A DNA stretch of 64,000 nucleotides from Lachnospiraceae bacterium. GTDB lineage: Bacteria; Bacillota; Clostridia; Lachnospirales; Lachnospiraceae. Below the pieces are notes generated by a model, which worked only from the letters and a program-made list of their open reading frames with translations, did not search any database and was not told where the DNA came from. Within the stretch, counting starts at the first letter, position 1. Each line of letters starts with the position of its first letter. Shown here in pieces: positions 7,739 through 63,943 of the stretch. The DNA is taken from contig JAZUIN010000024.1 of the NCBI GenBank assembly GCA_045642225.1, positions 28,984 to 92,983 of the forward strand, read 5' to 3'. The translations under genes were made by a program, and so were the position numbers.

Positions 7739-7834
7739 AACTCTATCCTCGTAAATTAATGTATAGTTATAGATATTAATATACATTCTATTCTATTATA
7801 CAAGTTTTATACAACAATTATCAAGTTGAATATT

Positions 7835-9649: not shown

Positions 9650-10537
9650 TTAGTCTTCTCTCTTATCTCCCCAGAAGAATAAAGCAACTGTTCCTGGACC
9701 TGTATGACTACCAATTGTAGTACCAATATAAAAGATCTCAACCTTGCCATTCATCTTAGTAAATGTTTCTTCTACTAAGTCTGCTACAGCTCTTGCATCT
9801 TCTTCACACGCTGAATGAGAAATGAAAACTTTACCAGTATAGTTCTCTCCATCAACAGCATGCTCAACCATACGTTGAACAGTCTCTTTATATGCTTTCT
9901 TTTTTGTTCTAATTTTGAAACGAGGAATCAATCTTCCCAAGTAATCCATATTAAGTAATGGACAAATATTTAACATTTGACCAACGAAGCCCGATGTCTT
10001 AGATACTCTTCCTCCCTTAATGTAAAATGTTAAATCTGTAGAGAAGAACCAGTGATGTAATCTAAGTCTGTTCTCTTCAGCCCAGTCTCTTAACTCATCA
10101 ATTCCCATTCCTTCTTTCTTCTTTGTAGCAAGAGTATCCATCAAAAGACCGTAACCTGATGATGCACCCAATGAATCTACAATGTAAATCTTTCTATCTG
10201 GATAATCTTCTTCTAGCATTTGCTTTGCAACATTTGCAGAATTAAACGAACCTGACAAACCTGTTGAAAGTGTAACATGTAAAATGTCCTTACCTTCTTT
10301 TAAGAATGGTTCAAAATATTCTACATACTCTTCCACATTAACTTGTGAAGTCTTTGTATCTGAACCATTTGCCATTCTTTGATAAAAATCTTCAAACTTA
10401 ATTGTTTGTCCCAAATCATCTGGATAGCTTACTCCGTCTAACTCATAATGAAAAAATACACATTTAACATCGATTTTTTCAAAGTACTCCTTTGTTAAAT
10501 CTGCAGTTGAACAACAGCTCAATACATAATCACTCAT
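9650..10537 (-). CDS. DegV family fatty-acid-binding protein (FakB-like)
   Basis: Typical DegV length and motifs (CCSTADL, SLSGSxN-like [19 protein letters not shown]). AAGGAG Shine-Dalgarno. Confidence 0.85.
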
Positions 10538-11996: not shown

Positions 11997-13508
11997 TTAT
12001 TTTATGCTTTTCATTGCTTCTTCCATAGTCATACCATTATCAATAGCTTCTTTACGTTTTGCATTAACTTCTTGAATCTCTTTCATCTTGTCACCTGTAA
12101 GAATATACCCCTTCATAGCAATAAGAGTAAGTGCCCAAGATATCATAGGTATAATACAAAATAGCACAATTACTACTACATTCATTCCTGCACTATAAGG
12201 TGTATCTCCACCCGGCAATGTCTTTAGTCCAATAATAGCAACTGCTCCACCAACAACAGTAGATGCAAGTGATGAAACCAACTTATCTACTAACGAGAAC
12301 AATGTACCAATAATACCTGGAACATATTTACCCGAACGATAAGTCTCGTAATCTGAACAATCTGCAACCATAGGTATTGGCATATCTGCAGTAGCATAAT
12401 ATGCACCATATCCGATCCCAAAAAATACTATAAATAATATTGTATACAAATTAATAGTAATTGATCCATTTGCAAATAATGTCAAATTAAATGCTGGGTC
12501 TCCATACTTCCACATCAACAATACTACAAGAACGCCAACATACATGATAAGTGCAATAGCTACATATCTCATCAAGGATGCCTTCTGGCCCTTCTTCTGA
12601 GATGTACGAACTGTAAGTGCAAAAAATGGAGCCGAAAAGACATATCCAATAATCATCATTGGAAGATATAATCCATCATAATCTCCCATCATACAGCCAT
12701 ACAACATACAAAGAACTGTACCGTTAGTCGCAATAGCGAGTGCTAATTTACAACCAGCACCTGCAACCATAAGTCTCTTAAGTGGACCGTTCTCTTTTAT
12801 AATAATTAAGTACTCCTTGAGGGATACCTTCTGTGTGGTAGTGCTAATACCAAAATACTTAGGCTGATCCTTCTCCCATATACCTATAACTGCTAGTAAA
12901 GTTAATACTGCAGATATAACAATAGAAATCGGAATCACATAATCAAAGAATTCTGCTGTAGTATAATCACCCACATTAGCTCTAATAATTGGCGCTAAGA
13001 TTTGGATTGAGCCCATTCCAATCATTGATGCAACCAAATTAAACACTGTAAAAAGTGGTCTTTGATTAGGATCATTTGTTAGAACTGTCTGACCAGATCT
13101 TGTACAACTCGTTTGAAATGTATAGCCAATAACATATATCATATACGCCACGACAAACGCAACATAACGCGCTGGCATCATCGTATCAGGAATCAACCTT
13201 GTACAAAAGTACAACAAGATTGACGAAACAGCCATTATGCCATTTCCCAAAATCATATAAGGCCTAAACTTACCAAAACGTCCGTTAGTCTTATCTATCA
13301 GCGCTCCAATAATGGGATCTGTCACTGCGTCAAAAAGACGCATGACAGTAACCATTGTTGTTGCAAACATTAAAGCTAGAGCAAGTACTCCATTACCGTA
13401 ATAAGCAATGTAAGTAATCGTCAAAATATAATATACATTTGTCGCCCCATTATTAAACGGAAATAATATCAACTGATAGGGCTTTGCTCTATTTATACCA
13501 TTTTCCAT
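11997..13508 (-). CDS. Glycoside-pentoside-hexuronide (GPH):cation symporter family transporter
   Basis: About 12 TM helices. GPH signature DAVTDPIIGALIDKTNGRFGKFRPY. Confidence 0.85.
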   Translation of the reverse strand: MENGINRAKPYQLILFPFNNGATNVYYILTITYIAYYGNGVLALALMFATTMVTVMRLFDAVTDPIIGALIDKTNGRFGKFRPYMILGNGIMAVSSILLYFCTRLIPDTMMPARYVAFVVAYMIYVIGYTFQTSCTRSGQTVLTNDPNQRPLFTVFNLVASMIGMGSIQILAPIIRANVGDYTTAEFFDYVIPISIVISAVLTLLAVIGIWEKDQPKYFGISTTTQKVSLKEYLIIIKENGPLKRLMVAGAGCKLALAIATNGTVLCMLYGCMMGDYDGLYLPMMIIGYVFSAPFFALTVRTSQKKGQKASLMRYVAIALIMYVGVLVVLLMWKYGDPAFNLTLFANGSITINLYTILFIVFFGIGYGAYYATADMPIPMVADCSDYETYRSGKYVPGIIGTLFSLVDKLVSSLASTVVGGAVAIIGLKTLPGGDTPYSAGMNVVVIVLFCIIPMISWALTLIAMKGYILTGDKMKEIQEVNAKRKEAIDNGMTMEEAMKSIK

Positions 13509-13522
13509 AAATCCTCTCCTGT

Positions 13523-16468: not shown

Positions 16469-16483
16469 CGATACCTCCTTTTC

Positions 16484-18493
16484 TTATACCCAATTCATTG
16501 CGTTTCCCTTAGGTGTTTTATATTTATCCAAAAGCTTATCCGTCTTGACAATAACGGTTTCATCCACAAACTCGTTACCATCTTTATCTCGTGCAATTAC
16601 CTTTATCTTATTCTCTGGTTTAGAATCAAGTGCAAACGTGAAAGTACGCTCACCACACTGCGTCTCAAGCTCTTCACCATTCTGATAAATAGTAACCACA
16701 GGAAGATTTGAATAAACCTTTATCTTTAACTTTTTACCAGGTCTTGCTTCAAACTTCTTTCCACATATATGAACAAATTTCTCTTCGGACCAGGCTGCCT
16801 TGTATGCATAGAAGCTATCCTTTTTCACCTTCCTGTCAAAAGTAACTAACCCCTTGTGATTCATTCCTGGCTCGCCACCTTGATCTCTAGCATCTGCTGC
16901 AAAGTCGAACATATTCCATACATAACTTCCCCAGATAAATTTATGCCTCTCAAAACACTTAATCATATATTCATGATAAATAGCTTGATAGTCTTCCGTC
17001 TGATCTCCTCTACGAGGTCTAATGGAATGAAGATTTGGCATTCCCTCAGCACCATATTCAGAATATCCTAACGGTTTCTTTGGATGGAAAATGCGATACC
17101 AATACATAAACAAATCGTTCATGAATAGCCCCGGAAAATACCAACCATAATAATTATTCCAAGCTATGATATCGCTTATATATGTTATTGGATGAAATGG
17201 CGTACACATCGAGAAGCATGCCATTGTAGTCAATCTTGTTGGATCTAACTTCTTAATAAGCTTCTGCAATTTCTTATGATTCTTGATACAATCACCAAAA
17301 GAATTCTTCCAAGAAATTGTTATCTCATTTGAAATCCCCCACATAACTATTGACGGGTGGTTATAGTTTTGAACTACTAACTCTTTCATTTGAAAATGTG
17401 TATTATCATTTCCACTCTTCATATGCATTGAAATGTAAGGAATCTCTGCCCAAACAATCATTCCATATTTGTCACACAAATCATAAAAATATTGATTATG
17501 CTGATAATGCGCAAGCCTTATAGAATTTGTTCCCATTTCACGAATCAAATCCATATCTTCTTCCATCATTTCATAAGTGATGGCATTACCTATTCCTTTA
17601 CGGTCCTGATGTCTAGATACCCCTTTAAGCGGAAAGCTTCTTCCATTCAAGAAGAAACCTCTGCTTGGGTCTACACTAAAGAATCTAAAGCCAGTATACT
17701 CGACAACTTCATCAACAACCTCTTCTCCTTTGACTAAGGTGGTTACGAACTTATACCTATACGGATTATCTATGCCATCCCAAAGAATTGCATCCTTTAT
17801 ATCAAATGTTAATTTTGCTTTTGCATTTGAATTAACACCTTTATCTGCTTCATAAACTAACTTTTCATCTTCGTCAAATACTTTAAGCTTTACCGAAAAT
17901 TTTTCTTCCGACGATATAGTAAAATATGTCTTAACTTCAACATTTACATTTGCTCTTCTTAGAACTCCTAAAGCATTATCACTAGACTCCTTTTCTTGCA
18001 ATGTATCTTCAAAAACCTTTGATGTGATTTGAACTCCTTTGCTCCCATAGAAATCCAAATCAAATCTATCCTTCGGAACAATTAAGATTTTGACATCCCT
18101 ATATATTCCTCCATAAAATGTAAAATCTGCTCGCTGTGGATAAACCTTATCATTAACACTATTATCTACTTTAACAACAAGCTCATTTTCCTCGTCAAGA
18201 TACGGCGTTACATTTACACGAAATGTGCTATAACCATTATGATGCTCGCACAATTCTTTACCATTAAACACAACAAAAGCACTCGCATTTACACCAAGAA
18301 ATTCTAGGTACACCTCTTGAGTACTTTCATCATACTCAATAGCACCTAGTTTCTTCTTGTAAATACAAGTGCCTCTGTAATAATCATTCCCTCCATCTTG
18401 GCCATCAATATTGTTCCAAGTATGCGGCAAATCAACACAAGACAGTTCATCCTCTTTAACAAACTGCCATCCATCCATTATTAATTTCTCCAT
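16484..18493 (-). CDS. Glycoside hydrolase family 2 (beta-galactosidase/beta-glucuronidase-like)
   Basis: N-terminal sugar-binding region (DLPHTWN), the acid/base region WGISNE, and the nucleophile region SEYGAEG. Confidence 0.85.
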   Translation of the reverse strand: MEKLIMDGWQFVKEDELSCVDLPHTWNNIDGQDGGNDYYRGTCIYKKKLGAIEYDESTQEVYLEFLGVNASAFVVFNGKELCEHHNGYSTFRVNVTPYLDEENELVVKVDNSVNDKVYPQRADFTFYGGIYRDVKILIVPKDRFDLDFYGSKGVQITSKVFEDTLQEKESSDNALGVLRRANVNVEVKTYFTISSEEKFSVKLKVFDEDEKLVYEADKGVNSNAKAKLTFDIKDAILWDGIDNPYRYKFVTTLVKGEEVVDEVVEYTGFRFFSVDPSRGFFLNGRSFPLKGVSRHQDRKGIGNAITYEMMEEDMDLIREMGTNSIRLAHYQHNQYFYDLCDKYGMIVWAEIPYISMHMKSGNDNTHFQMKELVVQNYNHPSIVMWGISNEITISWKNSFGDCIKNHKKLQKLIKKLDPTRLTTMACFSMCTPFHPITYISDIIAWNNYYGWYFPGLFMNDLFMYWYRIFHPKKPLGYSEYGAEGMPNLHSIRPRRGDQTEDYQAIYHEYMIKCFERHKFIWGSYVWNMFDFAADARDQGGEPGMNHKGLVTFDRKVKKDSFYAYKAAWSEEKFVHICGKKFEARPGKKLKIKVYSNLPVVTIYQNGEELETQCGERTFTFALDSKPENKIKVIARDKDGNEFVDETVIVKTDKLLDKYKTPKGNAMNWV

Positions 18494-50631: not shown

Positions 50632-52749
50632 TTATTTTTCTTTATTAGCAATAAGCTTGTCTTGTACAGACTTAGGTACTGGTTCATACTTCTCGAAGAA
50701 CATAGAATAGTTACCACGTCCTTGAGTTCTAGAACGAAGGTCTGTTGAATAACCAAACATTTCAGCTAGTGGAACAAAACCACGAACGATCTTACCACCG
50801 CCTAAGTCATCCATACCTTCGATACGACCACGTCTAGCATTAATATCACCAATAACGTCGCCCATGTATTCTTCTGGCATAGTAACTTCAACCTTCATGA
50901 TAGGCTCTAGTAATACAGGATCTGCCTTAGCCATAGCTTCCTTGAAACACATACTACCTGCAATATGGAAAGCCATTTCTGATGAATCGACTTCATGGTA
51001 AGAACCATCATATACAGTAGCAGAAATACCAAGTACAGGGAATCCACAAAGGATACCAGCCTTAGCAGCTTCTTCAATACCTTCACCAACTGATGGGATA
51101 TATTCCTAAGGAATAGAACCACCAACTACAGTTGATTCAAACTTAAATACTTCTTCAGCATTTGCATCCATAGGCTCAAACTTAACCTTACAATGTCCAT
51201 ACTGACCACGACCACCGGATTGCTTAGCATACTTGTATTCTTGGTCAACAGCCTTTGTAAATGTTTCTTTGTATGCAACTTGAGGTGCACCAACATTTGC
51301 TTCAACCTTGAATTCACGAAGTAATCTATCAACGATGATCTCTAAGTGTAACTCACCCATACCAGCGATGATTGTCTGACCTGTTTCTTGATCAGTGTGA
51401 GCTCTAAATGTAGGATCTTCTTCAGCAAGCTTAGCTAAAGCTTCACCCATCTTTTGTTGTCCAGCTTTAGTCTTAGGCTCAATAGCAAGCTCGATAACTG
51501 GCTCTGGGAATTCCATAGACTCTAGGATAACTGGATGTTGCTCATCACAGATTGTATCACCAGTTGAAGTAACCTTAAATCCAACTGCTGCAGCAATATC
51601 ACCAGAATATACCTTGTCTAATTCTTCTCTCTTGTTAGCATGCATTTGTAGGATACGTCCTACTCTTTCCTTCTTATCCTTAGTAGCATTAAGTACATAA
51701 GAACCTGAATTCATTGTACCTGAATATACACGGAAGAATGCTAACTTACCTACGAATGGGTCTGTCATAATCTTAAATGCTAATGCTGAGAATGGCTCTT
51801 CATCAGAAGAGTGTCTCTCAACTTCATTACCATCCATATCAACACCCTTAATAGCTGGGATGTCAATTGGAGAAGGCATGAATTCGATAACAGCATCAAG
51901 AAGCTTTTGTACACCCTTATTTCTGTAAGCTGTACCACAACATACAGGAACTGCTGTACATTCACAAGTACCCTTTCTTAAAGCGGCTTTAAGGTCATCA
52001 ACTGCAACCTCTTCACCTTCTAAGTATTGCATCATTAGATCATCATCTAATTCACAAATCTTCTCGATTAATTCTGTACGATAAAGTTCTGCATCATCTT
52101 TCATATCATCAGGGATGTCTACGATTGAGATGTCATCACCCTTATCATCATTATAGATGTAAGCCTTCATTTCGAATAGGTCTACAATACCCTTGAAATC
52201 ATCTTCTTTACCGATTGGTAATTGAAGAACGATAGCATTCTTACCTAGACGATTACGGATTTGATCTACAGCTCCGTAAAAGTCTGCGCCTAAGATATCC
52301 ATCTTGTTGATGAATGCCATACGAGGTACGTTATATGTATCAGCTTGACGCCATACATTTTCAGACTGAGGCTCAACACCACCCTTAGCACAGAATACAC
52401 CTACAGCACCGTCAAGTACACGAAGTGATCTCTCAACTTCAACTGTAAAGTCAACGTGTCCTGGAGTATCAATAATATTGATACGATGCTCTTCTGCACC
52501 AGCCTTTGGCTTGTTTTGCTCTTGAAGTGTCCAGTGACAAGTTGTAGCAGCAGAAGTAATTGTAATACCTCTTTCTTGTTCCTGCTCCATCCAGTCCATT
52601 GTTGCTGAACCATCATGAGTTTCGCCGATTTTATAATTTACACCAGTATAATATAGAATACGCTCAGTTGTTGTTGTCTTACCAGCATCAATATGAGCCA
52701 TGATTCCGATATTTCTAGTTCTCTCTAACGGATATTCTCTTCCAGCCAA
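50632..52749 (-). pseudogene. fusA: Elongation factor G, full length and in frame but interrupted by one TAG codon (51108..51106) at the conserved IP[K/R]EYIP position
   Basis: The TTG start at 52749 lies 8 nt after AAGGAGG. The sequence reads [14 protein letters not shown]...[32 protein letters not shown]...[11 protein letters not shown]... and continues in the same frame to 50632. Confidence 0.85.
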
Positions 52750-54039: not shown

Positions 54040-54531
54040 ATGAAAAACAAGATTAAATTTACAGCCCTAATCCTTTGCTTGCTTATAATTGCAACCTTAT
54101 GCGGATGCTCCAAAGGATTATCACCTATATCATCTAAAGATTTTGAAAAAACAATCGGAAGCAACTTTGAGTTTAAGGATGTTACTTCTCAGGTAAAAAG
54201 GAACACCGCTTCCGTTACAGAAGTAATACATGCCACAGATTCTGACGGCTTAGAAATAGAATATTGGAAATTTGAATCTGACCAAAAGGCCTCTATCGAA
54301 TTTCACAACAAGCGTTCACGAATTTCTACATTATGCCCTAACGATAACAATTGGTATCAAGATGGTTATGAAAACATGGTCTGTACAGGTTCTAATGGCA
54401 AAATGTATTTCCATCTAGTGCGTATCGACGACACATTTATATATTCTGCTGTTGAGATTAATAACAAAAACAAATGCTTATCTTTATTCCAATCACTCGG
54501 CTATGTAATAGAGAAAAAATCTGTAAAATAA
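54040..54531 (+). CDS. Small lipoprotein of unknown function
   Basis: Signal peptide with the lipobox LCGC (LLIIATLCGCSKG). GGAGG Shine-Dalgarno. An extended -10 (TGATATAAT) lies upstream. Confidence 0.7.
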   Translation: MKNKIKFTALILCLLIIATLCGCSKGLSPISSKDFEKTIGSNFEFKDVTSQVKRNTASVTEVIHATDSDGLEIEYWKFESDQKASIEFHNKRSRISTLCPNDNNWYQDGYENMVCTGSNGKMYFHLVRIDDTFIYSAVEINNKNKCLSLFQSLGYVIEKKSVK

Positions 54532-55183: not shown

Positions 55184-56137
55184 TTATACTAACTCTTCCA
55201 AAAAATTCTTAATAGCATTATCATATTGCTCTTCATATGTATATCTACTTCTAGAATGTGCAGACTCGTTAAACCACTCTATCCTTTTAGGTGCACTACA
55301 TTTATTATATATTTTCTCAGCCCAAACAGCCGTAGAAAATATATCTGCTCTACTATGCAAGAACAAAATCGGTCTGTCCATTTTGCCAATTTCATAAAAT
55401 GGGCCCTGATCATATATATCCACCTTAGACAACTTACGCGTCCAAAATATAATCGTAGAAAAAAACGGAAATAACGGTCTATTTTCTGCAATCATATGCG
55501 TCTTTATAGATTCTGCAAATGTAGCATACATTCCTTCTGCTGCCATTCCCACAACATAATCTGGAGCATTTCCTCTAGTAAATGCGTATAAGGCATTTGC
55601 GCTTCCGACACATACTCCATGTAAAAATATTGTTTTATTTCCCAATTCGTCATGAAGTAGCTCGCACCACTTTATAACATCTACGTATTCTCTTTGGCCT
55701 ACAGCGAAATATTTACCCTCTGACAAACCATGACATCTATTATCAATAACCAAAATGTTATATCCCATTTCTTCGTAAGGGTTAGCAAAGAAATACGAAT
55801 ACAAAACTGTTTCAGGACGTCCCGAAATAATAAATGCACATTTATCAGCGCCAAAATCAAAATATTCTCCGGCTAGCTTAAACCCATCACTTTCAACTTC
55901 TACCGGTGTCATTTTATCCTTGTGCTCTTCAAACCACTCTCCGGCTTTCGCAAACATTTGTGAATATTCATAATCATCTGGCCAATTACTACCACGCTTC
56001 CATTTGTCTTTGCTTGTGCGAACCAACAAATTTCTATAAACTCTATACCCCACAACAAATGCTGGAAGTGCGAATAGTAGCAAAGCCGCCAGTATTACTA
56101 CTCCAATAATTATTAATGCAATTTTCATATATATCAC
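55184..56137 (-). CDS. Membrane-anchored alpha/beta-fold hydrolase with a G-x-C-x-G nucleophile elbow
   Basis: N-terminal TM helix. The motif is HGVCVGS in place of GxSxG. Downstream are Asp (HSRADIF) and His (NESAHS) candidates for the triad. Confidence 0.7.
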   Translation of the reverse strand: MIYMKIALIIIGVVILAALLLFALPAFVVGYRVYRNLLVRTSKDKWKRGSNWPDDYEYSQMFAKAGEWFEEHKDKMTPVEVESDGFKLAGEYFDFGADKCAFIISGRPETVLYSYFFANPYEEMGYNILVIDNRCHGLSEGKYFAVGQREYVDVIKWCELLHDELGNKTIFLHGVCVGSANALYAFTRGNAPDYVVGMAAEGMYATFAESIKTHMIAENRPLFPFFSTIIFWTRKLSKVDIYDQGPFYEIGKMDRPILFLHSRADIFSTAVWAEKIYNKCSAPKRIEWFNESAHSRSRYTYEEQYDNAIKNFLEELV

Positions 56138-56140
56138 CTT

Positions 56141-57688
56141 CTACATTATCCCCACGATTATTTGGCTATCTTCCTGCTTTCCATTAAAGAATTGCATCTC
56201 TAAATAAGGAAACATCTCTTGAAGCTCACTCTTAATAGTTATCTGCGCATCCACGTCAACATTCTTACCAAAGAATAGCGTTAGACAATCTCTTTCCTCT
56301 AAATCTTCTAGATCCTCCAAAGCATTATAAACCTTTGTTACCAAATCATTATTCGACTTAAATACTAGGCAATCAATATCTTCTGCTCCATATTTAATTT
56401 GAGAAACTCTCTCTTCAAATGTCTCATCTGGCATATTCATGTTAAGCGCGAAATAACCTTCTGCCATATTCTTAGTGTTAACCATTTTGATTGTCTTATC
56501 CGAGTATCCTTCGATAAACTCTTCTAAGTCTTGCTGTTCCTCTACATTAGGAATAAAAATAATTTGCGAGGATTCAATAAATTCTAATTGATGCTTTAGC
56601 TGCTTTAAAACATTAGCGTCACTATCAAGCACGACATCCGCGCCAAGTTCCTCATATATTTCTACAAAGCCTTCGCCCGTAGCTGCTGCAACAACCACTA
56701 CATCCTTCTTAATAATCTTCTTTTTATTCTCAACATTTTTGCGGATAAATTTGTTATATTGCACCTGCATATTATCCATTTTAAATGTAATGAATTCGCC
56801 ATAGCTTTGTGAAATATTTAGAACCTCTCCAGGTGTAAATGTATGAATATGCACTTTCACTCTTTTGTTGCCAGCTTCTGTTACTACTAAAGAGTCTCCT
56901 AACTTCTTAAGCTGTTCGATGTATTTATCCACGTTAAACTCATCAGCGTGCTTTGAATTAAGTAGCTGCAAGACATACTCCAAGCAATAACATTTTTCAA
57001 AGGCTGAATCTTCATTAAATATCTCATGCGTGACATTCAACGTAGCTTCATTATCCTTGTGAAAGGACATTTCCCCTTCAAGGTCTTCACCCATAAGCGA
57101 CTTAAACATTCCTTCAAAAATTGTAATGTAACCAACGCCGCCGCTATCAACTACATCATTTTCATTCAAGATAGGTAACATATCTGGCGTCTCTGCTAAT
57201 GTAGCATTCATCTCATCAATATATGCTTTAAATGTTTCTTCTATAGAACTACCATCTATATGTCCTTTTATTCTCTCTGCACCCTGACGACAAACTGTAA
57301 GTATTGTTCCTTCAACAGGATTAACAACTGATGCATAGCCCGTCTTATACGCTGAGACAAATGCTCTTTGCAAAAGTCTCGAATCTGCACGCTTAACCTC
57401 TGCCATTTCAAGATATAATCCTCTGAAAAGCTGCGAGAGAATCGTTCCTGAATTTCCTCTTGCGCCAAGAAGCATTCCTTCCGTAAGTTGATTTAGATAC
57501 TCTCCTAAATTTGTCGTAGATTTTGCTGAATTTATACCATTTTCTAAAGTAATTCTCATGTTATAGCCCGTATCGCCATCAGACACCGGGAACACATTCA
57601 TACAGTTAATTTCTGTCTCTTGACTCTTTATATTAGCAAGACCATTTCTTACCATTTTTTCAAATATTAAGCCATCAATTTCTGTCAT
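56141..57688 (-). CDS. DAK2-domain protein of the YloV/FakA (fatty acid kinase) type
   Basis: N-terminal NVFPVSDGDTGYNM ... GARGNSGTILSQLFRG is the Dak2 nucleotide-binding signature of FakA/YloV proteins. The length of 515 aa is similar. Confidence 0.75.
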   Translation of the reverse strand: MTEIDGLIFEKMVRNGLANIKSQETEINCMNVFPVSDGDTGYNMRITLENGINSAKSTTNLGEYLNQLTEGMLLGARGNSGTILSQLFRGLYLEMAEVKRADSRLLQRAFVSAYKTGYASVVNPVEGTILTVCRQGAERIKGHIDGSSIEETFKAYIDEMNATLAETPDMLPILNENDVVDSGGVGYITIFEGMFKSLMGEDLEGEMSFHKDNEATLNVTHEIFNEDSAFEKCYCLEYVLQLLNSKHADEFNVDKYIEQLKKLGDSLVVTEAGNKRVKVHIHTFTPGEVLNISQSYGEFITFKMDNMQVQYNKFIRKNVENKKKIIKKDVVVVAAATGEGFVEIYEELGADVVLDSDANVLKQLKHQLEFIESSQIIFIPNVEEQQDLEEFIEGYSDKTIKMVNTKNMAEGYFALNMNMPDETFEERVSQIKYGAEDIDCLVFKSNNDLVTKVYNALEDLEDLEERDCLTLFFGKNVDVDAQITIKSELQEMFPYLEMQFFNGKQEDSQIIVGIM

Positions 57689-57733
57689 TTTAATTCCTTC
57701 TACGTTCTTCTTTCATCAACATTTCATATATCA

Positions 57734-59074
57734 TTACTTCTTACCTAACTCATTAAGGTACTTAGGCAAAAATACTGTTAATATCAATGAAATAATTACA
57801 GCAATCGCACTAATCAATGTAAGATACCACATTGGGCTAACTACTCCATCAGCATAAGCTTCACTGCCCTTCTTCAATGCTGTAAGTACTAAACCAGTCG
57901 CAATACCAGATGATACACCTGCAAACAAGCCTTGTACTGCAAAATACATTGCGCCTCTACTTCTTCCAGTCTCTTCCTCCTCTTTGGCCGCAAGCTGCGA
58001 TGGCACAGAATAAGCCACAGAAAACATTGCGCCTATTCCAAAAGAAGTAACTATTCCAGAAAGAATAGCAACTACCGTTTTAAGTGTTCCACTTTCCATA
58101 AAGGATATTCCAAATAACGCGCCCATACCAAATATAAAGAAAACTAGTGTATACCTAAAGGCAAAGCCAAAGCCTTTCTTATTAAATATCTTGGCATATA
58201 TTACAAGCGTTAATGGAACTGGTGCAAATGCTGAAATCGCAACCATCATCATACTTATATTTACCGTTGAAAAATATTCATTTATCCCGCCCAAAAATAG
58301 CTGCACTCCAAAGGTCATAAATGAATAAATTATCATCCATATAATAAATGTTTTATTCTTAAATGTATATGCAAGTGACGCAATCATCTTAGGTTGTTTT
58401 TCTACCGAAATCTCTTTGTCGAGGTTGCTTTCTTCCTTAATCATAAAAAACGGAATTAGCATCGTTAATACTAATGGCAACACAAGTAATGCTACCATTC
58501 TAATATTCATAGAATTAAGCATACTTCTAACCACAACATAGCCTAATACAAAATATACAATGTCAAAGAAAGACTTTACATTTGAAATTACATTTCTCTC
58601 TTGTTCGGTCTCAACAATTTCAGTAAATGTTGCGTAATAGGTAACCATTGTCAAAGTATATGATGTATAGAAAATGCATAGAAGTACACCATAATAAATG
58701 GTATTTAAAAGACTCACTCCACTTGGGTTAGGCACAACTAAAAATAGTAAGTATGCTAAAACCATAGGAACAAAACCTATCAACAACGATGGACGTCTTC
58801 TTCCCCATTTCGATCTAAATCTATCTGTCAATGAAGCCATAGGTATATCAATAACTCCATCTATAATTCTTGCGACAACAACAAATACAGCCCAAATTGC
58901 AGCTATAACCAAATCTTGTCCAACATAAGTCTGAAAAGGTTTAGCCTTATCACTAAACCCTCCAGCTATAAGCGCCGAGCACAAATATGAATTCATCATC
59001 AAGCTAATCATATTTACTCCAAGACCTGACGCTGCATATAAAAATAATTGCCACTTTTTAGTTAATTTCTTCAT
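57734..59074 (-). CDS. MFS transporter of the GPH/MelB-like type
   Basis: 12 TM helices. The loop 2-3 motif is DGVIDIPMASLTDRFRSKWGRRRP. Confidence 0.8.
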   Translation of the reverse strand: MKKLTKKWQLFLYAASGLGVNMISLMMNSYLCSALIAGGFSDKAKPFQTYVGQDLVIAAIWAVFVVVARIIDGVIDIPMASLTDRFRSKWGRRRPSLLIGFVPMVLAYLLFLVVPNPSGVSLLNTIYYGVLLCIFYTSYTLTMVTYYATFTEIVETEQERNVISNVKSFFDIVYFVLGYVVVRSMLNSMNIRMVALLVLPLVLTMLIPFFMIKEESNLDKEISVEKQPKMIASLAYTFKNKTFIIWMIIYSFMTFGVQLFLGGINEYFSTVNISMMMVAISAFAPVPLTLVIYAKIFNKKGFGFAFRYTLVFFIFGMGALFGISFMESGTLKTVVAILSGIVTSFGIGAMFSVAYSVPSQLAAKEEEETGRSRGAMYFAVQGLFAGVSSGIATGLVLTALKKGSEAYADGVVSPMWYLTLISAIAVIISLILTVFLPKYLNELGKK

Positions 59075-59099
59075 GACTCTTCCTTATTACTAGAAATAA

Positions 59100-60035
59100 T
59101 TATTTATTCTTCTCAATTATTTCTTCAAATGCTTTCTTTTCTTCTGACAAATCCTCACTGATTGGCTTACCCACATAGTATGCTGCCATAAGACCTGGGC
59201 CAACATTTACAGCATTTACCATTGTAAGCTCAATAATATGAACTGCTTTAGGATTAAATCTTTCTTCAATCATTTCTTTATATTTCTCAGCTTGTGGTCC
59301 TCTTTGAGAATGTGCAATAAAAATCTCTTGCTCAGTAGGATTTTCGATTTCGCGCTCCATATAATCTAGAAGCACTTTATATGCCATCTTAGCACCTTTA
59401 ACCTTAGCAAGTACAGTTGTCAAACCATTGTAATCAAACTCACCTAATGGTTTTACACCTGCTAATGTTCCAAAGAAAGCCTTAGCATTTGTTAATCTCC
59501 CCTTCTTTGCAACAAATGACAAATCATCTAACCAACCTGTTTGATGATATCTATTCTTATTTTCTTCCAAATAAGAAACAACTTCATCTATTGTTTTTCC
59601 TTCATCACGAAGCTTAGCCGCATGAACAACCATAAGACCATATCCCGGTCCAAAACGCAAAGAATCTATTACATGAATTTTTACGTCTGGATACTTCGCT
59701 TCGACTTGCTCTTTAGCCTTCACTTCAAAATTATATGCACCACTAATTCCAGAAGAAAGCGTTACTGACAAAATATCCTTTCCCTCTTTGGCATATCCCT
59801 CGAAAATCTCCGCTATCTCTTCTACATTTGCTGGTGAAGTTGAATACGACATTGGATCCTTTTTAAGCTTTGTATAGAAACTATCCTTATCATAATCAAG
59901 CCAACTCGTACCAACTACAATCTCTTTCCTGTCTGGGAATTGCACATGTCCTGGGTTGATAGCAATATTATATTTATCCATATATTCTTGATTTAAGTCA
60001 CTACCTGCTCCTGCCAATATAACAAACTCACTCAT
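59100..60035 (-). CDS. DegV family fatty-acid-binding protein (FakB-like)
   Basis: DegV length and motifs (LSSGISGAYN, VGPGLMAAYY). Confidence 0.85.
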   Translation of the reverse strand: MSEFVILAGAGSDLNQEYMDKYNIAINPGHVQFPDRKEIVVGTSWLDYDKDSFYTKLKKDPMSYSTSPANVEEIAEIFEGYAKEGKDILSVTLSSGISGAYNFEVKAKEQVEAKYPDVKIHVIDSLRFGPGYGLMVVHAAKLRDEGKTIDEVVSYLEENKNRYHQTGWLDDLSFVAKKGRLTNAKAFFGTLAGVKPLGEFDYNGLTTVLAKVKGAKMAYKVLLDYMEREIENPTEQEIFIAHSQRGPQAEKYKEMIEERFNPKAVHIIELTMVNAVNVGPGLMAAYYVGKPISEDLSEEKKAFEEIIEKNK

Positions 60036-60051
60036 CTCATATCTCCTTAAA

Positions 60052-60315
60052 TTATTTATTATTTAATTTATCTTCTATAAAAGAAACTACATCTCCTAGC
60101 GTCTTAAAATCTGAAACGCCAACATCTCCAAACTCAATATCAAATTCTTCTTCTATCGTTATTACAAGGTACAACATATCTATTGACATCAGTCCCAAAT
60201 CCGTTGACAAATTTGATGCTTCTGTTGCCGCTTCATATTTATCTTTATTTCTATCATCTGACTGAATCAGATTGTCTTTTAGCTTTCTAGCTATTTCTTC
60301 TCTACTTATTGTCAT
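60052..60315 (-). CDS. Acyl carrier protein (stand-alone, operon-specific)
   Basis: 87 aa, acidic. The phosphopantetheine site context is DLGLMSIDML. Confidence 0.75.
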   Translation of the reverse strand: MTISREEIARKLKDNLIQSDDRNKDKYEAATEASNLSTDLGLMSIDMLYLVITIEEEFDIEFGDVGVSDFKTLGDVVSFIEDKLNNK

Positions 60316-61786
60316 TTTGGTATCTCACAATCTTCATACTTGGTGTTCTTTCAAAATCACTATCGCGTATAATAATATCATTCACTCTCTGGAAAGGTTG
60401 TAATTCGAGATTCTTTTCTTGAAGCTTTTTAAGCATTTCTGCTTCTATATCTTCTTCGCCAAAATCCTTCAACTCTGTTGCTCTTGGATAAATCTCCAAT
60501 GCTAGTTTCCTATCTTTGTCTTCATAAACCTGACAATCTTGCACAAAATCAAGCTCATTAAACTTAGCCTCTAATTCCTGTGGAGAAATGTTTTCGCCAC
60601 TTGGAAGAACTATCACTTCTTTTATTCTTCCTACGATATACATATATCCTTGTACATCAAACTTGACTAAGTCTCCTGTTCTAAACCAACCATCTGTGAA
60701 GCTCTCCTCTTCGCCAATATAGCCATCCATTATGTTTTTGCCTTTGAGCCAAAGTTCTCCATCTACAACCTTGTACTCTTGATTAGGATACAATATTCCA
60801 ACAGAATCTGGCTTTGATAAGCTTTCTGGATTTCCCGAAACAAGATTTGCTGATTCCGTCAAACCATATCCTGGCAATAGCTTAATTCCTAATGCTTGAT
60901 ATTCTCTTACAAGATAAGGGCTAACTGCTGCAGCTCCTGCAATTATTGTTTTAACGCTATCTCCTAACATATTTCGTTTAAATTTCGTAGACAACTGTAG
61001 TGCAAGTTCAGCAAGTGCCGGAACAAGCACAAGAATAGTTGGTCTAAACACTGCAATATCCTTGAACATATCTTTATTATTTTTACAAATGTAAAGCATA
61101 CTTCCTGTGTATAGACTCGTCATAAGATTTCTAATTAATCCAAACACATGTGTCAAAGGAATCACAAGTAAATATCTTTGATTAAATACATTTTCATAGC
61201 CATAGCAACCATTGATAGTTCCTTGCATTACGGCCTCATTACTTAACAAAACGGCTTTGCTTCCACCTGTCGTACCACCAGTAAACATTATTACTGCAGG
61301 TTCTTTTCCGTCAACTTTGGCAATACCTTCTTCTCGCCCGTTGTCATTAACCGACAGCTTGCACACACTAGTATCGACTAGCTTAACCTTATCTTCTAAA
61401 GCCTCTTCATAAATAATTGCATCCGCCCCTAGTTTCAAGCAACACCCCATTACCGCCTTTTCATCTAAAGTTGCTGGAAGAATAATCGCTGTATTGCCTG
61501 ATGTAACAACTGCAAGATATGCTTTAACAAAGTCGATGCTATTAGTTGCCAAAATTGCAATTCTATCATTATCTTTATTTACATTCTGCTTTATCGCACC
61601 TCTTAAAGCTGATGCTTTCTTCTCTAATTGAGAAAATGTATACTCTTTTCCACCTTCAACAACAGCCGTCAACGAGGCATATTTAGATACGCAGTTCTCC
61701 CACATTTCACTCACAGTATCATATTCAACAATTTGTGCGAAAGTAGCTGGAGAAGTATATTTTGCAAATATCTCTTTATTTATCAT
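60302..61786 (-). CDS. AMP-dependent synthetase/ligase (acyl-AMP forming; probable fatty acyl-ACP/CoA ligase)
   Basis: AMP-binding motifs FTGGTTGGSKAV, GYGLTE, TGD and a C-terminal K. ATGA overlap with the upstream gene. Confidence 0.85.
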   Translation of the reverse strand: MINKEIFAKYTSPATFAQIVEYDTVSEMWENCVSKYASLTAVVEGGKEYTFSQLEKKASALRGAIKQNVNKDNDRIAILATNSIDFVKAYLAVVTSGNTAIILPATLDEKAVMGCCLKLGADAIIYEEALEDKVKLVDTSVCKLSVNDNGREEGIAKVDGKEPAVIMFTGGTTGGSKAVLLSNEAVMQGTINGCYGYENVFNQRYLLVIPLTHVFGLIRNLMTSLYTGSMLYICKNNKDMFKDIAVFRPTILVLVPALAELALQLSTKFKRNMLGDSVKTIIAGAAAVSPYLVREYQALGIKLLPGYGLTESANLVSGNPESLSKPDSVGILYPNQEYKVVDGELWLKGKNIMDGYIGEEESFTDGWFRTGDLVKFDVQGYMYIVGRIKEVIVLPSGENISPQELEAKFNELDFVQDCQVYEDKDRKLALEIYPRATELKDFGEEDIEAEMLKKLQEKNLELQPFQRVNDIIIRDSDFERTPSMKIVRYQNDNK

Positions 61787-62418
61787 CGTTTGTCTCCTAA
61801 TATCTTTTCTAATTCTATTTCTTTCTGGAAAATGTGCTCTGTAATCTTTTCAATTTCTTGCTTTGTAGGTCGATTCCCATACATTTCCCATACCTTTATA
61901 GGCTCTCCTATCACACATCTGTACCGCTTCCAAATATTTTTTCGTTTCTCAATATATACTGGAATAATCGGTTTCTTCGCAGAAAGACTCATTAGTACCA
62001 TTCCCGATTTAAAGCTATCTAATATTTCATCTGTAGTATTAATATGGCCTTCAGGAAAAATAGTTATAAGTTCTTCATTTTTAAGTCCAGATACTATTTC
62101 TTTGAATGTTGCCATACTAAAATCATCCCTATCAATAGGAATACATCTAAATCCCTTGAACACAAATCCATATGCTTTTTCAAAAATATCTTTGATGCAT
62201 ACAAATCTGTGTCTTCTATTCCAAATTGAAAGCATAATAATAAAAGGATCTGCAAATGTACTATGATTAGCACAAATCAATGCGCCTCCTTCTATCTTAT
62301 ATCTGTGCGCTGCATAATACACCTTTGGTCTAAAATAAAGCCAGCAAGGTGCACCTGTAACTCTCACAAAATCCCAAAACAAATATTTAATTCCAAATTT
62401 AACTTTGGCATTTTTCAT
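61783..62418 (-). CDS. PlsC/LPLAT-family acyltransferase (copy B)
   Basis: The HX4D motif is NHSTFADP. Block III is FPEGH. Confidence 0.8.
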   Translation of the reverse strand: MKNAKVKFGIKYLFWDFVRVTGAPCWLYFRPKVYYAAHRYKIEGGALICANHSTFADPFIIMLSIWNRRHRFVCIKDIFEKAYGFVFKGFRCIPIDRDDFSMATFKEIVSGLKNEELITIFPEGHINTTDEILDSFKSGMVLMSLSAKKPIIPVYIEKRKNIWKRYRCVIGEPIKVWEMYGNRPTKQEIEKITEHIFQKEIELEKILGDKR

Positions 62419-63049
62419 CTAATAAATCTCCGAGTCTTATTATTTCTTGTCGTAAATCTTCTGAAATCTTTCGAATATTTTTATTCCTACTGAGTCTTGG
62501 ATCAATATAATCATTTACATCTATTGGCTTACCAATAATCATCTTGGCACTTTTCTTAAAATATCCACCCTTAGTATAAATAGGAATAATAGGAACATTA
62601 CTATCCATTGCAATCATTGCTGTACTTGGAACAAATGGAAGTGGCGTCTCTTCACCCTTTTCTGCAAGTCTTGCTTCCGGAAAAATTCCTACTACACCAT
62701 TATTTCTTAAAATTTCTTCAGATTCTCTAATAAAATTAGCATTTATCGCTTTTCTATTTACATATATTCCGCCAAGATTACTAAGAAACCATCCAAGGAC
62801 AGGCTTCTCGAAAAGCACTTCTGCCATCTGATATCTTAGAGTTCTACCTATAATTACAAAAAATATTAATGCATAATCGTATACCGATGTATGATTAGAA
62901 ATTATTATTGCTGGACCATATATTGTTCTACCTTGTATACGTTTGTCTTCATAATAAACCTTAGGTCTTAATGCTAGAATCCAAAAAGGATACGCTGTAA
63001 TCTTTACAAATGCATTAAAAAATTTTATCTTTAAATCTTTAAGTTTCAT
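62399..63049 (-). CDS. PlsC/LPLAT-family acyltransferase (copy A)
   Basis: The HX4D motif is NHTSVYDY. Block III is FPEARL. Confidence 0.8.
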   Translation of the reverse strand: MKLKDLKIKFFNAFVKITAYPFWILALRPKVYYEDKRIQGRTIYGPAIIISNHTSVYDYALIFFVIIGRTLRYQMAEVLFEKPVLGWFLSNLGGIYVNRKAINANFIRESEEILRNNGVVGIFPEARLAEKGEETPLPFVPSTAMIAMDSNVPIIPIYTKGGYFKKSAKMIIGKPIDVNDYIDPRLSRNKNIRKISEDLRQEIIRLGDLLDEKCQS

Positions 63050-63824
63050 TTCCTTTAGCCTTCTTATCTACTACCTTTGTTACAACAATCAAAATTATAC
63101 CTAGAATAAATAAACCTATACTAATCCACTGTGAAGTATACAAATCCAAGAACTTACCTCGATATTCATCATACCTAAACATTTCTAGAACAAATCTAAC
63201 TACCGCATATAACATTAAATATATAGAAATGCTATATTTCAAACCACCCTTCATACTATAAATAAATAGCACCAAAGCTATCATCATCAAGCAAATAGCT
63301 TCCACAAGCTGTACAGGAAACAAGCTTATTCCTGCTGGCGCAATAGATCCTTTCGGAAATACCACAGCAAAAGGACCATCATAAGGCTTTCCATAACAGC
63401 ATCCTGCCAAGAAGCATCCTATTCGTCCGAAGGCATGCGCAAATGGTATGGCAAATGTATATTTTCTAACAAAAAACCACGCATCTATTTTATGAGCAAT
63501 TCCCGCTATAATAACACATAAAAGACCGCCAATTAATCCTCCATAAAATACAAATCCACCGCCAATTATTGTTCCTAAGTAATTAAAATCTGTAAGACGG
63601 TCCCATTCAATCATATCAAATGACACAATTATATATAATATTTTAGCACCTAAAAATCCCCCCAACAATCCGTATGCTTCTATAATGATAAGATCTAGTA
63701 TATCCTTCTTATCCCTTTTTATAACCATCCAGCCGACAATCAAATTGGCCAAGATAGCGCCTATTGTAATCATCAAACCGTATCCGGGCACTTTAAACCC
63801 GAAAATATTTAAATAAATGCTCAT
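63039..63824 (-). CDS. lgt: Prolipoprotein diacylglyceryl transferase
   Basis: Polytopic membrane protein. The Lgt signature is GRIGCFLAGCCYGKP. Confidence 0.85.
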   Translation of the reverse strand: MSIYLNIFGFKVPGYGLMITIGAILANLIVGWMVIKRDKKDILDLIIIEAYGLLGGFLGAKILYIIVSFDMIEWDRLTDFNYLGTIIGGGFVFYGGLIGGLLCVIIAGIAHKIDAWFFVRKYTFAIPFAHAFGRIGCFLAGCCYGKPYDGPFAVVFPKGSIAPAGISLFPVQLVEAICLMMIALVLFIYSMKGGLKYSISIYLMLYAVVRFVLEMFRYDEYRGKFLDLYTSQWISIGLFILGIILIVVTKVVDKKAKGNET

Positions 63825-63913: not shown

Positions 63914-63943
63914 AAAAAAGCGTCTGTCATAAGACAAACGCTT
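63914..63943 (-). terminator. Intrinsic terminator of the truncated upstream gene
   Basis: AAGCGTTTGTC-loop-GACAGACGCTT followed by TTTTTT on the minus strand. Confidence 0.7.

Follow-up and report, generated by a model that had tools for sequence, protein, structure and literature searches.

A nine-gene unit headed by lgt

The locus described here lies in a 64,000-nucleotide stretch of a Lachnospiraceae genome (GenBank assembly GCA_045642225.1, contig JAZUIN010000024.1, positions 28,984 to 92,983), which we refer to as the window. Nine genes on its minus strand run from lgt through two acyltransferase genes (ATa and ATb), an adenylate-forming ligase (Lig), an acyl carrier protein (ACP), a DegV or FakB-like protein, a major facilitator superfamily (MFS) transporter and a FakA-like kinase to a membrane-anchored enzyme with an alpha/beta fold (Hyd2). 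The unit is a local fusion of a copy of a gene cluster, which recurs in many Clostridia, with what is probably the resident lgt.

A first-pass annotation made from the sequence alone had described nine tightly packed genes, with overlaps or gaps of 45 nt or less. The open reading frame (ORF) listing of the window agrees with this description in both coordinates and spacing: all nine minus-strand ORFs are present where they had been placed (Table 1), and the junctions from lgt to the hydrolase measure −11, −20, −4, −14, +16, +25, +45 and +3 nt. Ribosome-binding (Shine-Dalgarno-like) sites are recognizable before most of the genes, the one preceding ACP being weak. A terminator scan of the region found no convincing terminator inside the operon. 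A promoter-like site (10/12 match) was found at 55098-55070, ahead of the 138-aa gene downstream of Hyd2. The nine genes are almost certainly one transcription unit. No Rfam family scored above its gathering score anywhere in the window (1-64000), nor, therefore, in the leader of 93 nt that separates lgt from the terminator upstream.

Pfam searches upheld each domain that had been assigned by eye, the alpha/beta hydrolase match being weak and just under its gathering score. NCBIfam agreed with Pfam at the level of families, and nearly every one of the nine proteins scored under the NCBIfam equivalog cutoffs. Of the nine proteins, only Lgt, the MFS protein and Hyd2 have predicted transmembrane (TM) segments.

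Table 1. The lgt-headed unit and its borders, in window positions.
Feature	Position	Strand	Evidence or remark
Intrinsic terminator of the preceding gene	63918..63943	-	Strong; 11-bp stem, 5 G-C pairs, then T-run; bounds the operon on its upstream side
lgt, 261 aa, Clostridial short 'CC-variant' Lgt	63039..63824	-	Pfam LGT 7e-40, full length
ATa, 216 aa, PlsC-type acyltransferase paralog A	62399..63049	-	PF01553 1.6e-20; no TM segment
ATb, 211 aa, acyltransferase paralog B	61783..62418	-	PF01553 2.3e-18; nearest to the Aas acyltransferase domain
Lig, 494 aa, class-I adenylate-forming ligase	60302..61786	-	AMP-binding 2.6e-53
ACP, 87 aa, dedicated acyl carrier protein	60052..60315	-	PP-binding 3e-4
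DegV / FakB-like fatty-acid-binding protein, 311 aa	59100..60035	-	PF02645 2e-58
MFS_2 transporter, 446 aa, MFSD2A-like cation symporter	57734..59074	-	MFS_2 3e-31
FakA-like kinase, 515 aa, C-terminal domain internally deleted	56141..57688	-	Dak2 + FakA_M + FakA_C
Hyd2, 317 aa, N-terminally membrane-anchored alpha/beta-fold enzyme, Cys-Asp-His triad	55184..56137	-	Weak Pfam hydrolase matches
Small DUF4190/'CCC-motif' membrane protein, 138 aa	54592..55008	-	NF040945 4e-7, under cutoff; cluster tail gene and/or ancestral lgt neighbor
Predicted lipoprotein, 163 aa, convergent with the operon	54040..54531	+	Signal peptide ending L-C-G-C (lipobox), read from sequence; synteny marker of the ancestral lgt locus

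The eight genes behind lgt belong to a cluster conserved in Clostridia

We collected related loci (given L-numbers) from gene-context look-ups, from a scan of GTDB genomes that supplied at least five loci, and from a metagenome scan that supplied 80. The query of the metagenome scan was a family-specific sub-region of the ligase alignment; these loci were not dereplicated, and the linkage fractions given below are approximate. About 90 sampled loci, in metagenomes or metagenome-assembled genomes (MAGs) of the rumen, the gut and related sources, carry the cluster (L001-L015, the 80 metagenome loci and L179-L181), and its core is strongly conserved well beyond the source strain. Orthologs of the ligase number more than 120, with 57-64% identity, and come from MAGs named Ruminococcus, Oscillospiraceae, Acutalibacteraceae, Lachnospiraceae or just Clostridia; the orthologs of the MFS protein give a similar taxonomic picture.

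The gene order conserved among these loci is AmpPP-ATa-ATb-ligase-ACP-LRAT(-PPTase)-Hyd1-DegV-MFS-FakA-Hyd2-small membrane protein, about 11-13 genes in the full cluster. AmpPP is a fusion of about 645 aa with AMP-binding and PP-binding domains, the LRAT gene is free-standing or often fused to a 4'-phosphopantetheinyl transferase (PPTase) of the Sfp/AcpT type, and Hyd1 is an alpha/beta hydrolase of the Ser type. AmpPP was present in 59/89 annotated loci and in L179; the remaining loci are cut by contig ends, with the exception of L133. The same exception apart, AmpPP is the head gene in all of the relatives' loci that reach upstream of ATa (59/60). At the other end, a small DUF4190/Zn-ribbon membrane protein follows Hyd2 in 27/34 loci that extend far enough. 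Some loci have a long MFS_2 protein of 635-650 aa, whose C-terminus is extended by a further membrane region of about 190 aa, placed between AmpPP and ATa (L012, L014, L015, L149, L160, L165). These are a short form of the cluster, AmpPP - long MFS - ATa - ATb - Lig - ACP - LRAT(-PPTase); in the two whose sequence continues past the LRAT gene (L012, L165), DegV, FakA and the hydrolases are missing. Because the short form keeps the MFS gene without the Fak genes, the transporter belongs with the acyltransferase/ligase/carrier module, as LplT belongs with Aas.

A tblastn search of the 64 kb with AmpPP, LRAT and PPTase found no homologs, and the Hyd1 query matched Hyd2 alone. Judged by gene content, the eight genes of the window from ATa to Hyd2 are a trimmed copy that lacks AmpPP, the LRAT/PPTase gene and hydrolase 1. 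The joint loss of LRAT and Hyd1 is a natural variant, since it is also seen in the otherwise complete clusters L009, L128 and L140. In full-text literature searches, neither the cluster nor a Gram-positive counterpart of LplT/Aas turned up. The cluster itself appears to be uncharacterized, an arrangement of familiar protein families that is widely conserved and has not been described.

Enzymes for acyl activation and transfer

Both acyltransferases are members of PF01553, with scores of 73.7 and 66.7 bits against a cutoff of 23, and both fall under the cutoff of the PlsC model TIGR00530. The motifs NHTSVYD (ATa, residue 52) and NHSTFAD (ATb, residue 51), which had been picked out in the first reading of the sequence, are genuine: N-H-x4-D is invariant in the orthologs, and in 20 acyltransferase sequences this block (N52-H53-x4-D58 in ATa) and the F-P-E block are both invariant. 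The two paralogs differ in their nearest relatives. For ATa the best NCBIfam match is TIGR00530, and for ATb it is the acyltransferase domain of PRK08633 (75 bits, compared with 52 for PlsC), a fused MFS-acyltransferase-ligase protein named 'acyl-[ACP]--phospholipid O-acyltransferase'; an ortholog of each gave the same result. A PDB sequence search with ATb returned weak matches only. A membrane anchor is usual in PlsC, and a hydrophobic segment is absent from both ATa and ATb.

The ligase scored under every NCBIfam cutoff, its best matches being MenE and FadD-type models. Its gene overlaps ATb by 4 nt and ACP by 14 nt, and the ligase and ACP are translationally coupled. Lig is a candidate acyl-ACP synthetase, the 14-nt Lig/ACP overlap being the only indication that it uses the carrier. 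ACP passes the Pfam PP-binding family (PF00550) marginally, with 21.3 bits against a gathering score of 20.8, and matches NCBIfam ACP models with E-values down to 6.5e-12, all under the cutoffs. Its Ser44, the site of phosphopantetheine attachment, is invariant in 16 orthologs. Distant pairs of Lig and ACP also occur in Bacteroidales and other Clostridia (L016, L017), in unrelated gene contexts that offer no functional lead.

The fused Aas models PRK08043, PRK08633 and PRK06814 were matched at the level of single domains only, with 16-108 bits against cutoffs of 886-1349; the genes here are separate, and the proteins are not Aas members. Because the scores of the cluster proteins lie under the equivalog cutoffs, the substrates of the components are assigned from family membership only.

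The transporter is closest in fold to MFSD2A

PF13347 (MFS_2/GPH) matched the transporter with 108.8 bits against a cutoff of 27, which places it in that branch of the MFS. An AlphaFold (AF2) model of the protein had a predicted local distance difference test score (pLDDT) of 77.7 and a predicted template modeling score (pTM) of 0.79. When this model was compared with the PDB using Foldseek, the top four matches were MFSD2A, with E-values from 6.8e-11 to 1.7e-8. MelB came next, at 3.6e-8 and weaker, and LplT-like structures were not among the high ranks of this search. The template modeling score (TM-score) of the model against MFSD2A was about 0.73-0.75. The transporter has an invariant K69-x2-D72-x3-D76 motif, which aligns with R85/D88/D92 of chicken MFSD2A and hence with R90/D93/D97 of the human protein. 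These residues are the sodium site of MFSD2A, and their equivalents in MelB are R52/D55/D59 (PMC10013850). The fold search and the alignment of the cation-site Asp pair both sustain the link to the Mfsd2a/MelB-like branch that was drawn in the first-pass annotation. Retention of the Asp pair implies symport, that is, import, and argues for a cation-coupled importer; the pair does not separate a lipid from a sugar substrate.

A PDB sequence search with the MFS protein gave no match. With sequence profiles, the outcome depended on the alignment: a profile that included the long-MFS variants found MFSD2A first, at 1.2e-4, whereas a narrower profile lost it. The link between the two proteins at the sequence level is thus weak, fragile and alignment-dependent, and we place the weight on the fold search.

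A separate MFS_2/GPH transporter of 503 aa is encoded beside GH3 and GH2 glycosidases elsewhere in the window (11997-18493), in what looks like an ordinary glycoside-uptake locus. It had no similarity to the cluster MFS that was detectable by tblastn.

The Fak pair and other lipid genes in the window

DegV scored 206 bits with TIGR00762 (cutoff 99.7) and did not reach the FakB1 equivalog (132 against 350). The FakA-like protein has all three of the expected Pfam domains, Dak2, FakA_M and FakA_C; the cluster proteins are far under the cutoffs of both the FakA and the FakB1 equivalogs. With the YloV model, the window FakA reached 383.3 bits against a cutoff of 396.1, and its orthologs scored above the cutoff over their full length, with 457-494 bits. 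Compared with the orthologs, the window protein lacks 28 residues in the C-terminal domain, a segment present in 7/7 of those aligned (alignment columns ~467-494). The nucleotide-site motifs DGDTG and GARGNSG and the Cys/His residues of the middle domain are intact. In work on S. aureus, the C-terminal domain of FakA is reported to dock FakB. FakAB scavenges fatty acids of the host (PMC10848957).

The window also contains a housekeeping-looking plsY (7061-7786) next to a gene for an MGDG-synthase-like glycosyltransferase (5898-7064). The same two genes adjoin lgt in the relative L177. A second DegV/FakB gene (9650-10537), whose product is 33% identical to the cluster DegV, lies two genes from this pair with an MCP gene between. 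No second fakA, acpP, plsC, plsX or fab gene was found within the 64-kb window.

These genes bear on the idea that the cluster is the main route of phospholipid acylation, for example in a fatty-acid auxotroph, in which case ACP, the acyltransferases and FakA would be housekeeping proteins and lgt would sit in a general membrane-lipid operon. The lack of paralogs in the window, together with the presence there of plsY and another FakB, fits this idea, as do the full-length orthologous FakA proteins above the YloV cutoff and the occurrence of plsY and a glycolipid synthase as neighbors of lgt in L177. However, the absence of paralogs covers only 64 kb of the genome and so says little, and the cluster does not behave as an indispensable unit: the short forms have no FakA or DegV and other loci have no MFS or no LRAT/Hyd1, which shows the parts to be dispensable and modular. 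ACP and the acyltransferases score far under the housekeeping cutoffs, ATa and ATb are without the anchor usual for PlsC, and the closest relatives of the window lgt have no cluster at the syntenic site. We consider a role as the main acylation route to be decidedly unlikely.

The deletion in FakA raises a different possibility, that the window copy is a decaying remnant with little or no function that is carried along in the transcription unit of lgt. AmpPP, LRAT/PPTase and Hyd1 have been lost, FakA has fallen under the YloV cutoff with its internal deletion of 28 aa, and the nearby fusA gene is split by a frameshift, a sign that the assembly or the genome carries lesions. Yet all eight ORFs are intact, most of them with a recognizable ribosome-binding site, and every catalytic motif that was checked is conserved. 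Nor are the losses peculiar to this copy, as LRAT and Hyd1 are also missing from L009, L128 and L140 and AmpPP from L133. Decay is therefore a very improbable explanation of the window copy.

Hyd2 and the enzymes found only in the relatives

Hyd2 has a G-x-C176-x-G elbow, D265 and H294, all conserved in six of six orthologs, in which the elbow reads H-G-x-C-x-G-S/A; the Hyd1 family has Ser in the position of the Cys. Sequence searches of the PDB matched Hyd2 only weakly, the best relative being an archaeal esterase (4e-10). A Cys nucleophile is also found in PHA synthases and dienelactone hydrolases, and in Hyd2 it suggests acyl-thioester chemistry rather than simple lipase activity. At its N-terminus the protein has one TM segment, after which comes a strongly basic stretch, and the positive-inside rule predicts a cytoplasmic catalytic domain.

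Two of the genes missing from the window encode further acyl-handling proteins. AmpPP has an adenylation domain most like those of MenE and 4-chlorobenzoate ligases and a carrier domain most like ACPs. The LRAT-family proteins of the relatives have the hallmark H23 and N-C106-E-H-F motif and have neither a signal peptide nor a TM segment. In L007 (9291-10316), L179 (7060-8127) and 30+ other loci, this LRAT/PLAAT-family Cys-His domain is fused to the Sfp/AcpT-type PPTase, a fusion that to our knowledge has not been described. Because it is fused to a PPTase, the LRAT domain would act on carrier-bound acyl groups in the cytoplasm.

Such a set of enzymes might instead make a specialized, possibly exported, acylated lipid. 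Two carrier-bound acids would then be joined to a backbone by ATa and ATb, the hydrolases would serve in release or editing, and the MFS protein would move the product. The full cluster resembles secondary-metabolite-like pathways in several respects, with its A-T didomain at the head, a second ligase and ACP, and a PPTase of the Sfp/AcpT type fused to an LRAT-like thiol enzyme; the adenylation domain of AmpPP is nearest aryl-acid ligases, and none of the enzymes reaches a housekeeping equivalog cutoff. Other features do not fit. The gene order is kept across many genera of Oscillospirales and Lachnospirales, as would be expected of core physiology, FakA and DegV are dedicated to free fatty acids, and the MFS protein has a cation-symport (import) signature and is nearest a lysolipid importer. 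In addition, the window copy has dispensed with the A-T protein and the PPTase while its other genes are intact. We regard synthesis of a specialized lipid as unlikely.

The linkage to lgt is local

The Pfam LGT family matches the window Lgt over its full length: 137 bits, with the cutoff at 24.9, and positions 2-240 of the 240 in the profile. The best NCBIfam equivalog score is 186.7 against 334, and all such scores are under their cutoffs. The protein falls in a large Clostridial subfamily of about 258 aa. A 13-residue Lgt motif has been defined as Y26 H103 G104 G142 R143 G145 N146 E151 G154 Y235 R239 E243 R246 (bioRxiv 10.1101/2025.03.27.645668). Of these 13, 11 are counted as kept in the window protein. 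Set beside Lgt of E. coli (5AZB), it retains Y26, G104, G142, R143, G145, G154, Y235, R239, E243 and R246; in E. coli numbering, H103 is replaced by Y, N146 by Cys (C137 of the window protein) and E151 by Cys (C142). The corresponding GRIGCFLAGCCYG motif (G-R-x-G-C...G-C-C-x-G) is invariant in 13 subfamily members. Tyr in place of H103 is known from Firmicutes, distant Lgt proteins have 'CC' or 'CD' for N146/E151, and the M. smegmatis Lgt paralog that carries N146C is presumed to be weakly active (bioRxiv 10.1101/2025.03.27.645668). We considered the 'CC' motif as a mark of a neofunctionalized Lgt paralog and rejected it as evidence, because all members compared from a large Clostridial subfamily share it and because it has been reported as a natural variant. 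Whether this is the primary Lgt is a question on which the motif does not decide either way.

The first-pass annotation described the operon as headed by lgt. Among the relatives this is not a property of the system: AmpPP heads their clusters, and lgt is the head gene in the window only. In L179, whose MFS protein is 67% identical, the head is readable and is not lgt; L180 and L181 (MFS 69% identical) are cut within the ligase, so that their heads are not visible. When we searched more loosely, lgt was within 3 kb upstream in 3/36 loci with at least 3 kb of sequence upstream of AmpPP, as lgt - NTP-transferase - AmpPP in L007 and L127 and as lgt - hydrolase - AmpPP in L170, and within 3 kb downstream in 1/11 loci with at least 3 kb downstream of Hyd2 (L009).

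Synteny accounts for the arrangement in the window. The two closest homologs of the window Lgt with readable context lie in loci without the cluster (< marks a gene read in the opposite direction). The order in L174 (Lgt 63% identical) is 141aa - lgt - 143aa - 137aa - CYTH - <172aa, and in L177, a Lachnospiraceae MAG (Lgt 55% identical), it is rpoB - rpoC - 134aa - 191aa - lgt - <170aa - plsY - MGDG synthase. The window order is lgt - [8 cluster genes] - 138aa - <163aa - rpsL - rpsG - fusA. The 138-aa protein matches the 137-aa protein of L174, two genes downstream of lgt (41% identity, 1e-21), and the 163-aa protein matches the 172-aa protein of L174 (56.5%, 6e-63) and the 170-aa protein of L177 (42%), both encoded just downstream of lgt. 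Because its closest homologs share these flanking genes and have no cluster, the window lgt is probably the housekeeping copy that was resident at this site. Most simply, the cluster came to lie, minus its head gene, between this lgt and the genes that had been its neighbors; directly behind lgt, the eight genes would now be read from its promoter.

The fusA (EF-G) gene that ends this series is split in the window (50632-52749, minus strand): a 547-aa ORF (51106-52749) ends early, and the C-terminal 114 aa are in another frame (50632-50976). Related EF-G proteins have 705 aa. The split is an assembly indel or marks a pseudogene, and the window assembly may hold other indel errors.

As regards coupling to lipoprotein lipidation, which the first-pass annotation proposed, the system has no lgt in most loci, and what survives is a loose proximity of lgt in at least three lineages. 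In a rough ligase tree the lgt-linked clusters occupy at least three separate positions, each with sisters that have no lgt despite ample flanking sequence. By a rough estimate for a single-copy gene, chance proximity is about 0.2-0.3%, and the linkage observed is higher. The linkage to lgt is thus patchy and recurrent and, on this estimate, above chance, yet it is a minority pattern of varying geometry. One possible cause that is not functional is that lgt and the cluster are both habitually found beside paralogous genes of the DUF4190 type.

Members of this Lgt subfamily regularly adjoin small DUF4190/Zn-ribbon membrane proteins (the window, L174, L177, L009, L091, L092, L007). The hydrophobic helix of the lgt-adjacent proteins ends in [IVF]-[GA]-C-x-[AG]-C, which resembles positions −2, −1 and +1 of a lipobox. 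The 138-aa protein of the window has the C-x-x-C typical of lgt-adjacent copies, and most of the tail proteins from clusters without lgt do not have those cysteines. That DUF4190 proteins might be partners or substrates of Lgt is pure speculation. In L092 (6633-10792), another Clostridial contig, lgt of the same subfamily comes after genes for, in this order, GNAT, an AMP-binding ligase (469 aa), a thioesterase and a DUF4190 protein, a second and different case of lgt next to acyl-activating genes.

The more speculative suggestion of the first-pass annotation was that the operon acylates lipoproteins further once Lgt has acted (to N-acyl, lyso or similar forms), by an unrecognized route, in a Firmicute without Lnt. 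In its favor, lgt is translationally coupled to ATa in the window, at least three lineages have lgt no more than 3 kb from the cluster, in arrangements that differ, and the LRAT Cys/His acyltransferase of the relatives shares with LnsA of S. aureus the broad class of permuted NlpC/P60 proteins. These points are outweighed by others. lgt is not near the cluster in 33/36 loci judged upstream and 10/11 judged downstream, heads it nowhere else, and is marked by synteny as a resident gene. The LRAT gene is absent from the window, and in the relatives its products have no export signal and in many cases form part of a fusion with a cytoplasmic PPTase, unlike the secreted LnsA; we had considered the LRAT protein as an analog of LnsA and rejected it because it is cytoplasmic and is missing from the window. 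Among the nine proteins, Pfam and NCBIfam detected no match to Lnt, Lit or LnsA/LnsB-type families. N-acylation of lipoproteins takes place on the outer face, and, Lgt aside, the predicted location of the enzymes is in the cytoplasm (ATa, ATb, the ligase and ACP) or facing it (the Hyd2 domain). The suggestion finds no footing in these proteins, and we judge such a pathway highly improbable. The lgt-headed arrangement looks like a one-off, with a tie to lipoproteins that is mostly an accident of position.

A candidate system for lysolipid and fatty-acid salvage

With moderate confidence, we propose that the cluster encodes a system on the cytoplasmic face of the membrane for the salvage and re-acylation of lysolipids and exogenous fatty acids, akin to LplT/Aas combined with Fak. 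The substrates and the direction of flux in this proposal are ones that we infer from the observed gene order, domains, conservation, catalytic residues, fold neighbors and synteny. In the proposed scheme, the MFSD2A-like, cation-coupled MFS protein would deliver a lysophospholipid or similar single-chain amphiphile to the cytoplasmic leaflet. The ligase would adenylate a free fatty acid and load it onto the dedicated ACP, and the Aas-like ATb and the PlsC-like ATa would transfer the acyl group from the carrier to the lyso-lipid or to lysophosphatidate. In parallel, DegV (as FakB) and FakA would turn free fatty acid into the acyl-phosphate used by PlsY, whose gene also lies in the window. Hyd2, with its Cys-Asp-His site facing the cytoplasm, might act as a thioesterase, a transacylase or a lysophospholipase. 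The net result would be salvage of exogenous fatty acids and lysolipids and repair of membranes damaged by phospholipase, and Lgt would be tied to the system only loosely, through its use of phosphatidylglycerol.

Several points weigh against this proposal, which is built on sequence and predicted structure. Three separate fatty-acid activation systems in one cluster are an unexplained redundancy, and salvage does not account for the recurrent proximity of lgt in at least three lineages and in different arrangements. The ligase, both acyltransferases, ACP and Lgt are all under every NCBIfam equivalog cutoff. The identity of the MFS protein to MFSD2A is only about 15%, the margin of MFSD2A over MelB in the Foldseek search is modest, and the profile search lost MFSD2A once the long variants were left out; the Asp pair is also common to the sugar transporter MelB, so that the substrate could be a glycoside. 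The window FakA may be impaired, as its deletion falls in the domain said to dock FakB. Finally, the adenylation domain of AmpPP is closer to aryl-acid ligases than to fatty-acid ligases, and its occurrence in the relatives together with an Sfp-type PPTase hints at a specialized product.

A more far-reaching form of the salvage proposal can be advanced only tentatively. A bacterial lysolipid importer of the MFSD2A type, split and duplicated Aas modules, a Fak pair and Cys transacylases (LRAT-PPTase and Hyd2) would together constitute, in Clostridia of the gut and rumen, a so far unrecognized Gram-positive counterpart of LplT/Aas, which would scavenge lysolipids and fatty acids from the host or its diet and repair membranes attacked by secreted phospholipase A2. 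The proximity of lgt and of the small membrane protein with its Cys motif would then reflect a real coupling of phosphatidylglycerol recycling to lipoprotein lipidation.

Lysolipid recycling in Gram-positive bacteria is known only through LpgD of S. aureus, and little is known of how the anaerobes of the gut and rumen take up lipids or resist phospholipase A2. The cluster brings together three chemistries of fatty-acid activation and a transporter that, among proteins of solved structure, is nearest to MFSD2A, the lysolipid importer of animals. Should the cluster serve in salvage and repair, it would offer a tractable bacterial model of MFSD2A-type lipid transport and would be a candidate for what determines the membrane composition of major commensals and their use of host lipids, as well as offering new enzymology in the LRAT-PPTase fusion and in the alpha/beta hydrolase with a Cys nucleophile. 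For lipoprotein biology our results carry a caution, in that the lgt linkage in the window should not be taken as a new lipoprotein-tailoring pathway.

Comparison with known systems

The first-pass annotation called the operon a disassembled Aas/LplT system joined to a Fak pair and a lipase-like enzyme. As an account of the domains this description fits; as a statement of membership it does not hold, since the split genes score under the cutoffs and the transporter is of another MFS branch. LplT/Aas of E. coli, with the fused forms PRK08633 and PRK06814, combines the same three activities with ACP: an MFS protein, an HX4D acyltransferase and an adenylate-forming ligase. The cluster shares with it a co-occurrence of MFS and the acyltransferase/ligase/carrier module even where Fak genes are missing, and ATb is nearest the Aas-type domain. 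It differs in that its parts are split and duplicated, so that the complete cluster has acyltransferases, ligases and carriers in twos, in that it has an ACP of its own and no component at Aas equivalog scores, and in that its transporter is of the MFS_2/GPH-MFSD2A branch and not a member of the MFS_1-type LplT lineage. LplT/Aas has been described as a Gram-negative system that protects against phospholipase attack (PMC11416262).

The FakA/FakB systems of S. aureus, streptococci and E. faecalis have the same architecture as the Fak pair of the cluster, Dak2 + FakA_M + FakA_C and DegV, and plsY, for the consumer of acyl-phosphate, is in the window. Here, however, the pair is embedded in a larger acyl-ACP/acyltransferase cluster, and the window FakA has its 28-aa deletion. 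MFSD2A, the eukaryotic Na+-dependent lysophosphatidylcholine symporter/flippase, is the best fold match of the transporter, and the TM2 motif K/R-x2-D-x3-D aligns in the two proteins; at about 15% identity, and with MelB nearly as close, a lipid substrate for the cluster MFS is a conjecture from sequence and model.

An auxiliary ACP for exogenous fatty acids is known from E. faecalis (PMC6509188). The cluster shares with that protein, AcpB, which is associated with PlsX, and with Vibrio AasS the concept of a non-housekeeping ACP dedicated to exogenous acyl chains. The partners of the cluster ACP are an adenylating ligase and acyltransferases of its own and not PlsX, and it has no detectable orthology to these systems, giving generic NCBIfam matches only. 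With LnsA/LnsB, Lit and Lnt, the points of contact are the few genomes in which the cluster stands beside lgt and the LRAT class of the relatives, which is distantly related to LnsA. In contrast to those systems, the window has no LRAT gene, and the LRAT proteins of the cluster are cytoplasmic where LnsA has a signal peptide.

The closest physiological parallel in a Gram-positive organism is the removal of lysophosphatidylglycerol by S. aureus through LpgD (PMC10404611). That route, from lysophosphatidylglycerol to lysophosphatidic acid and on to PlsC, meets the same problem that we propose for the cluster, by wholly different enzymology; the cluster contains no enzyme of the phospholipase D type.

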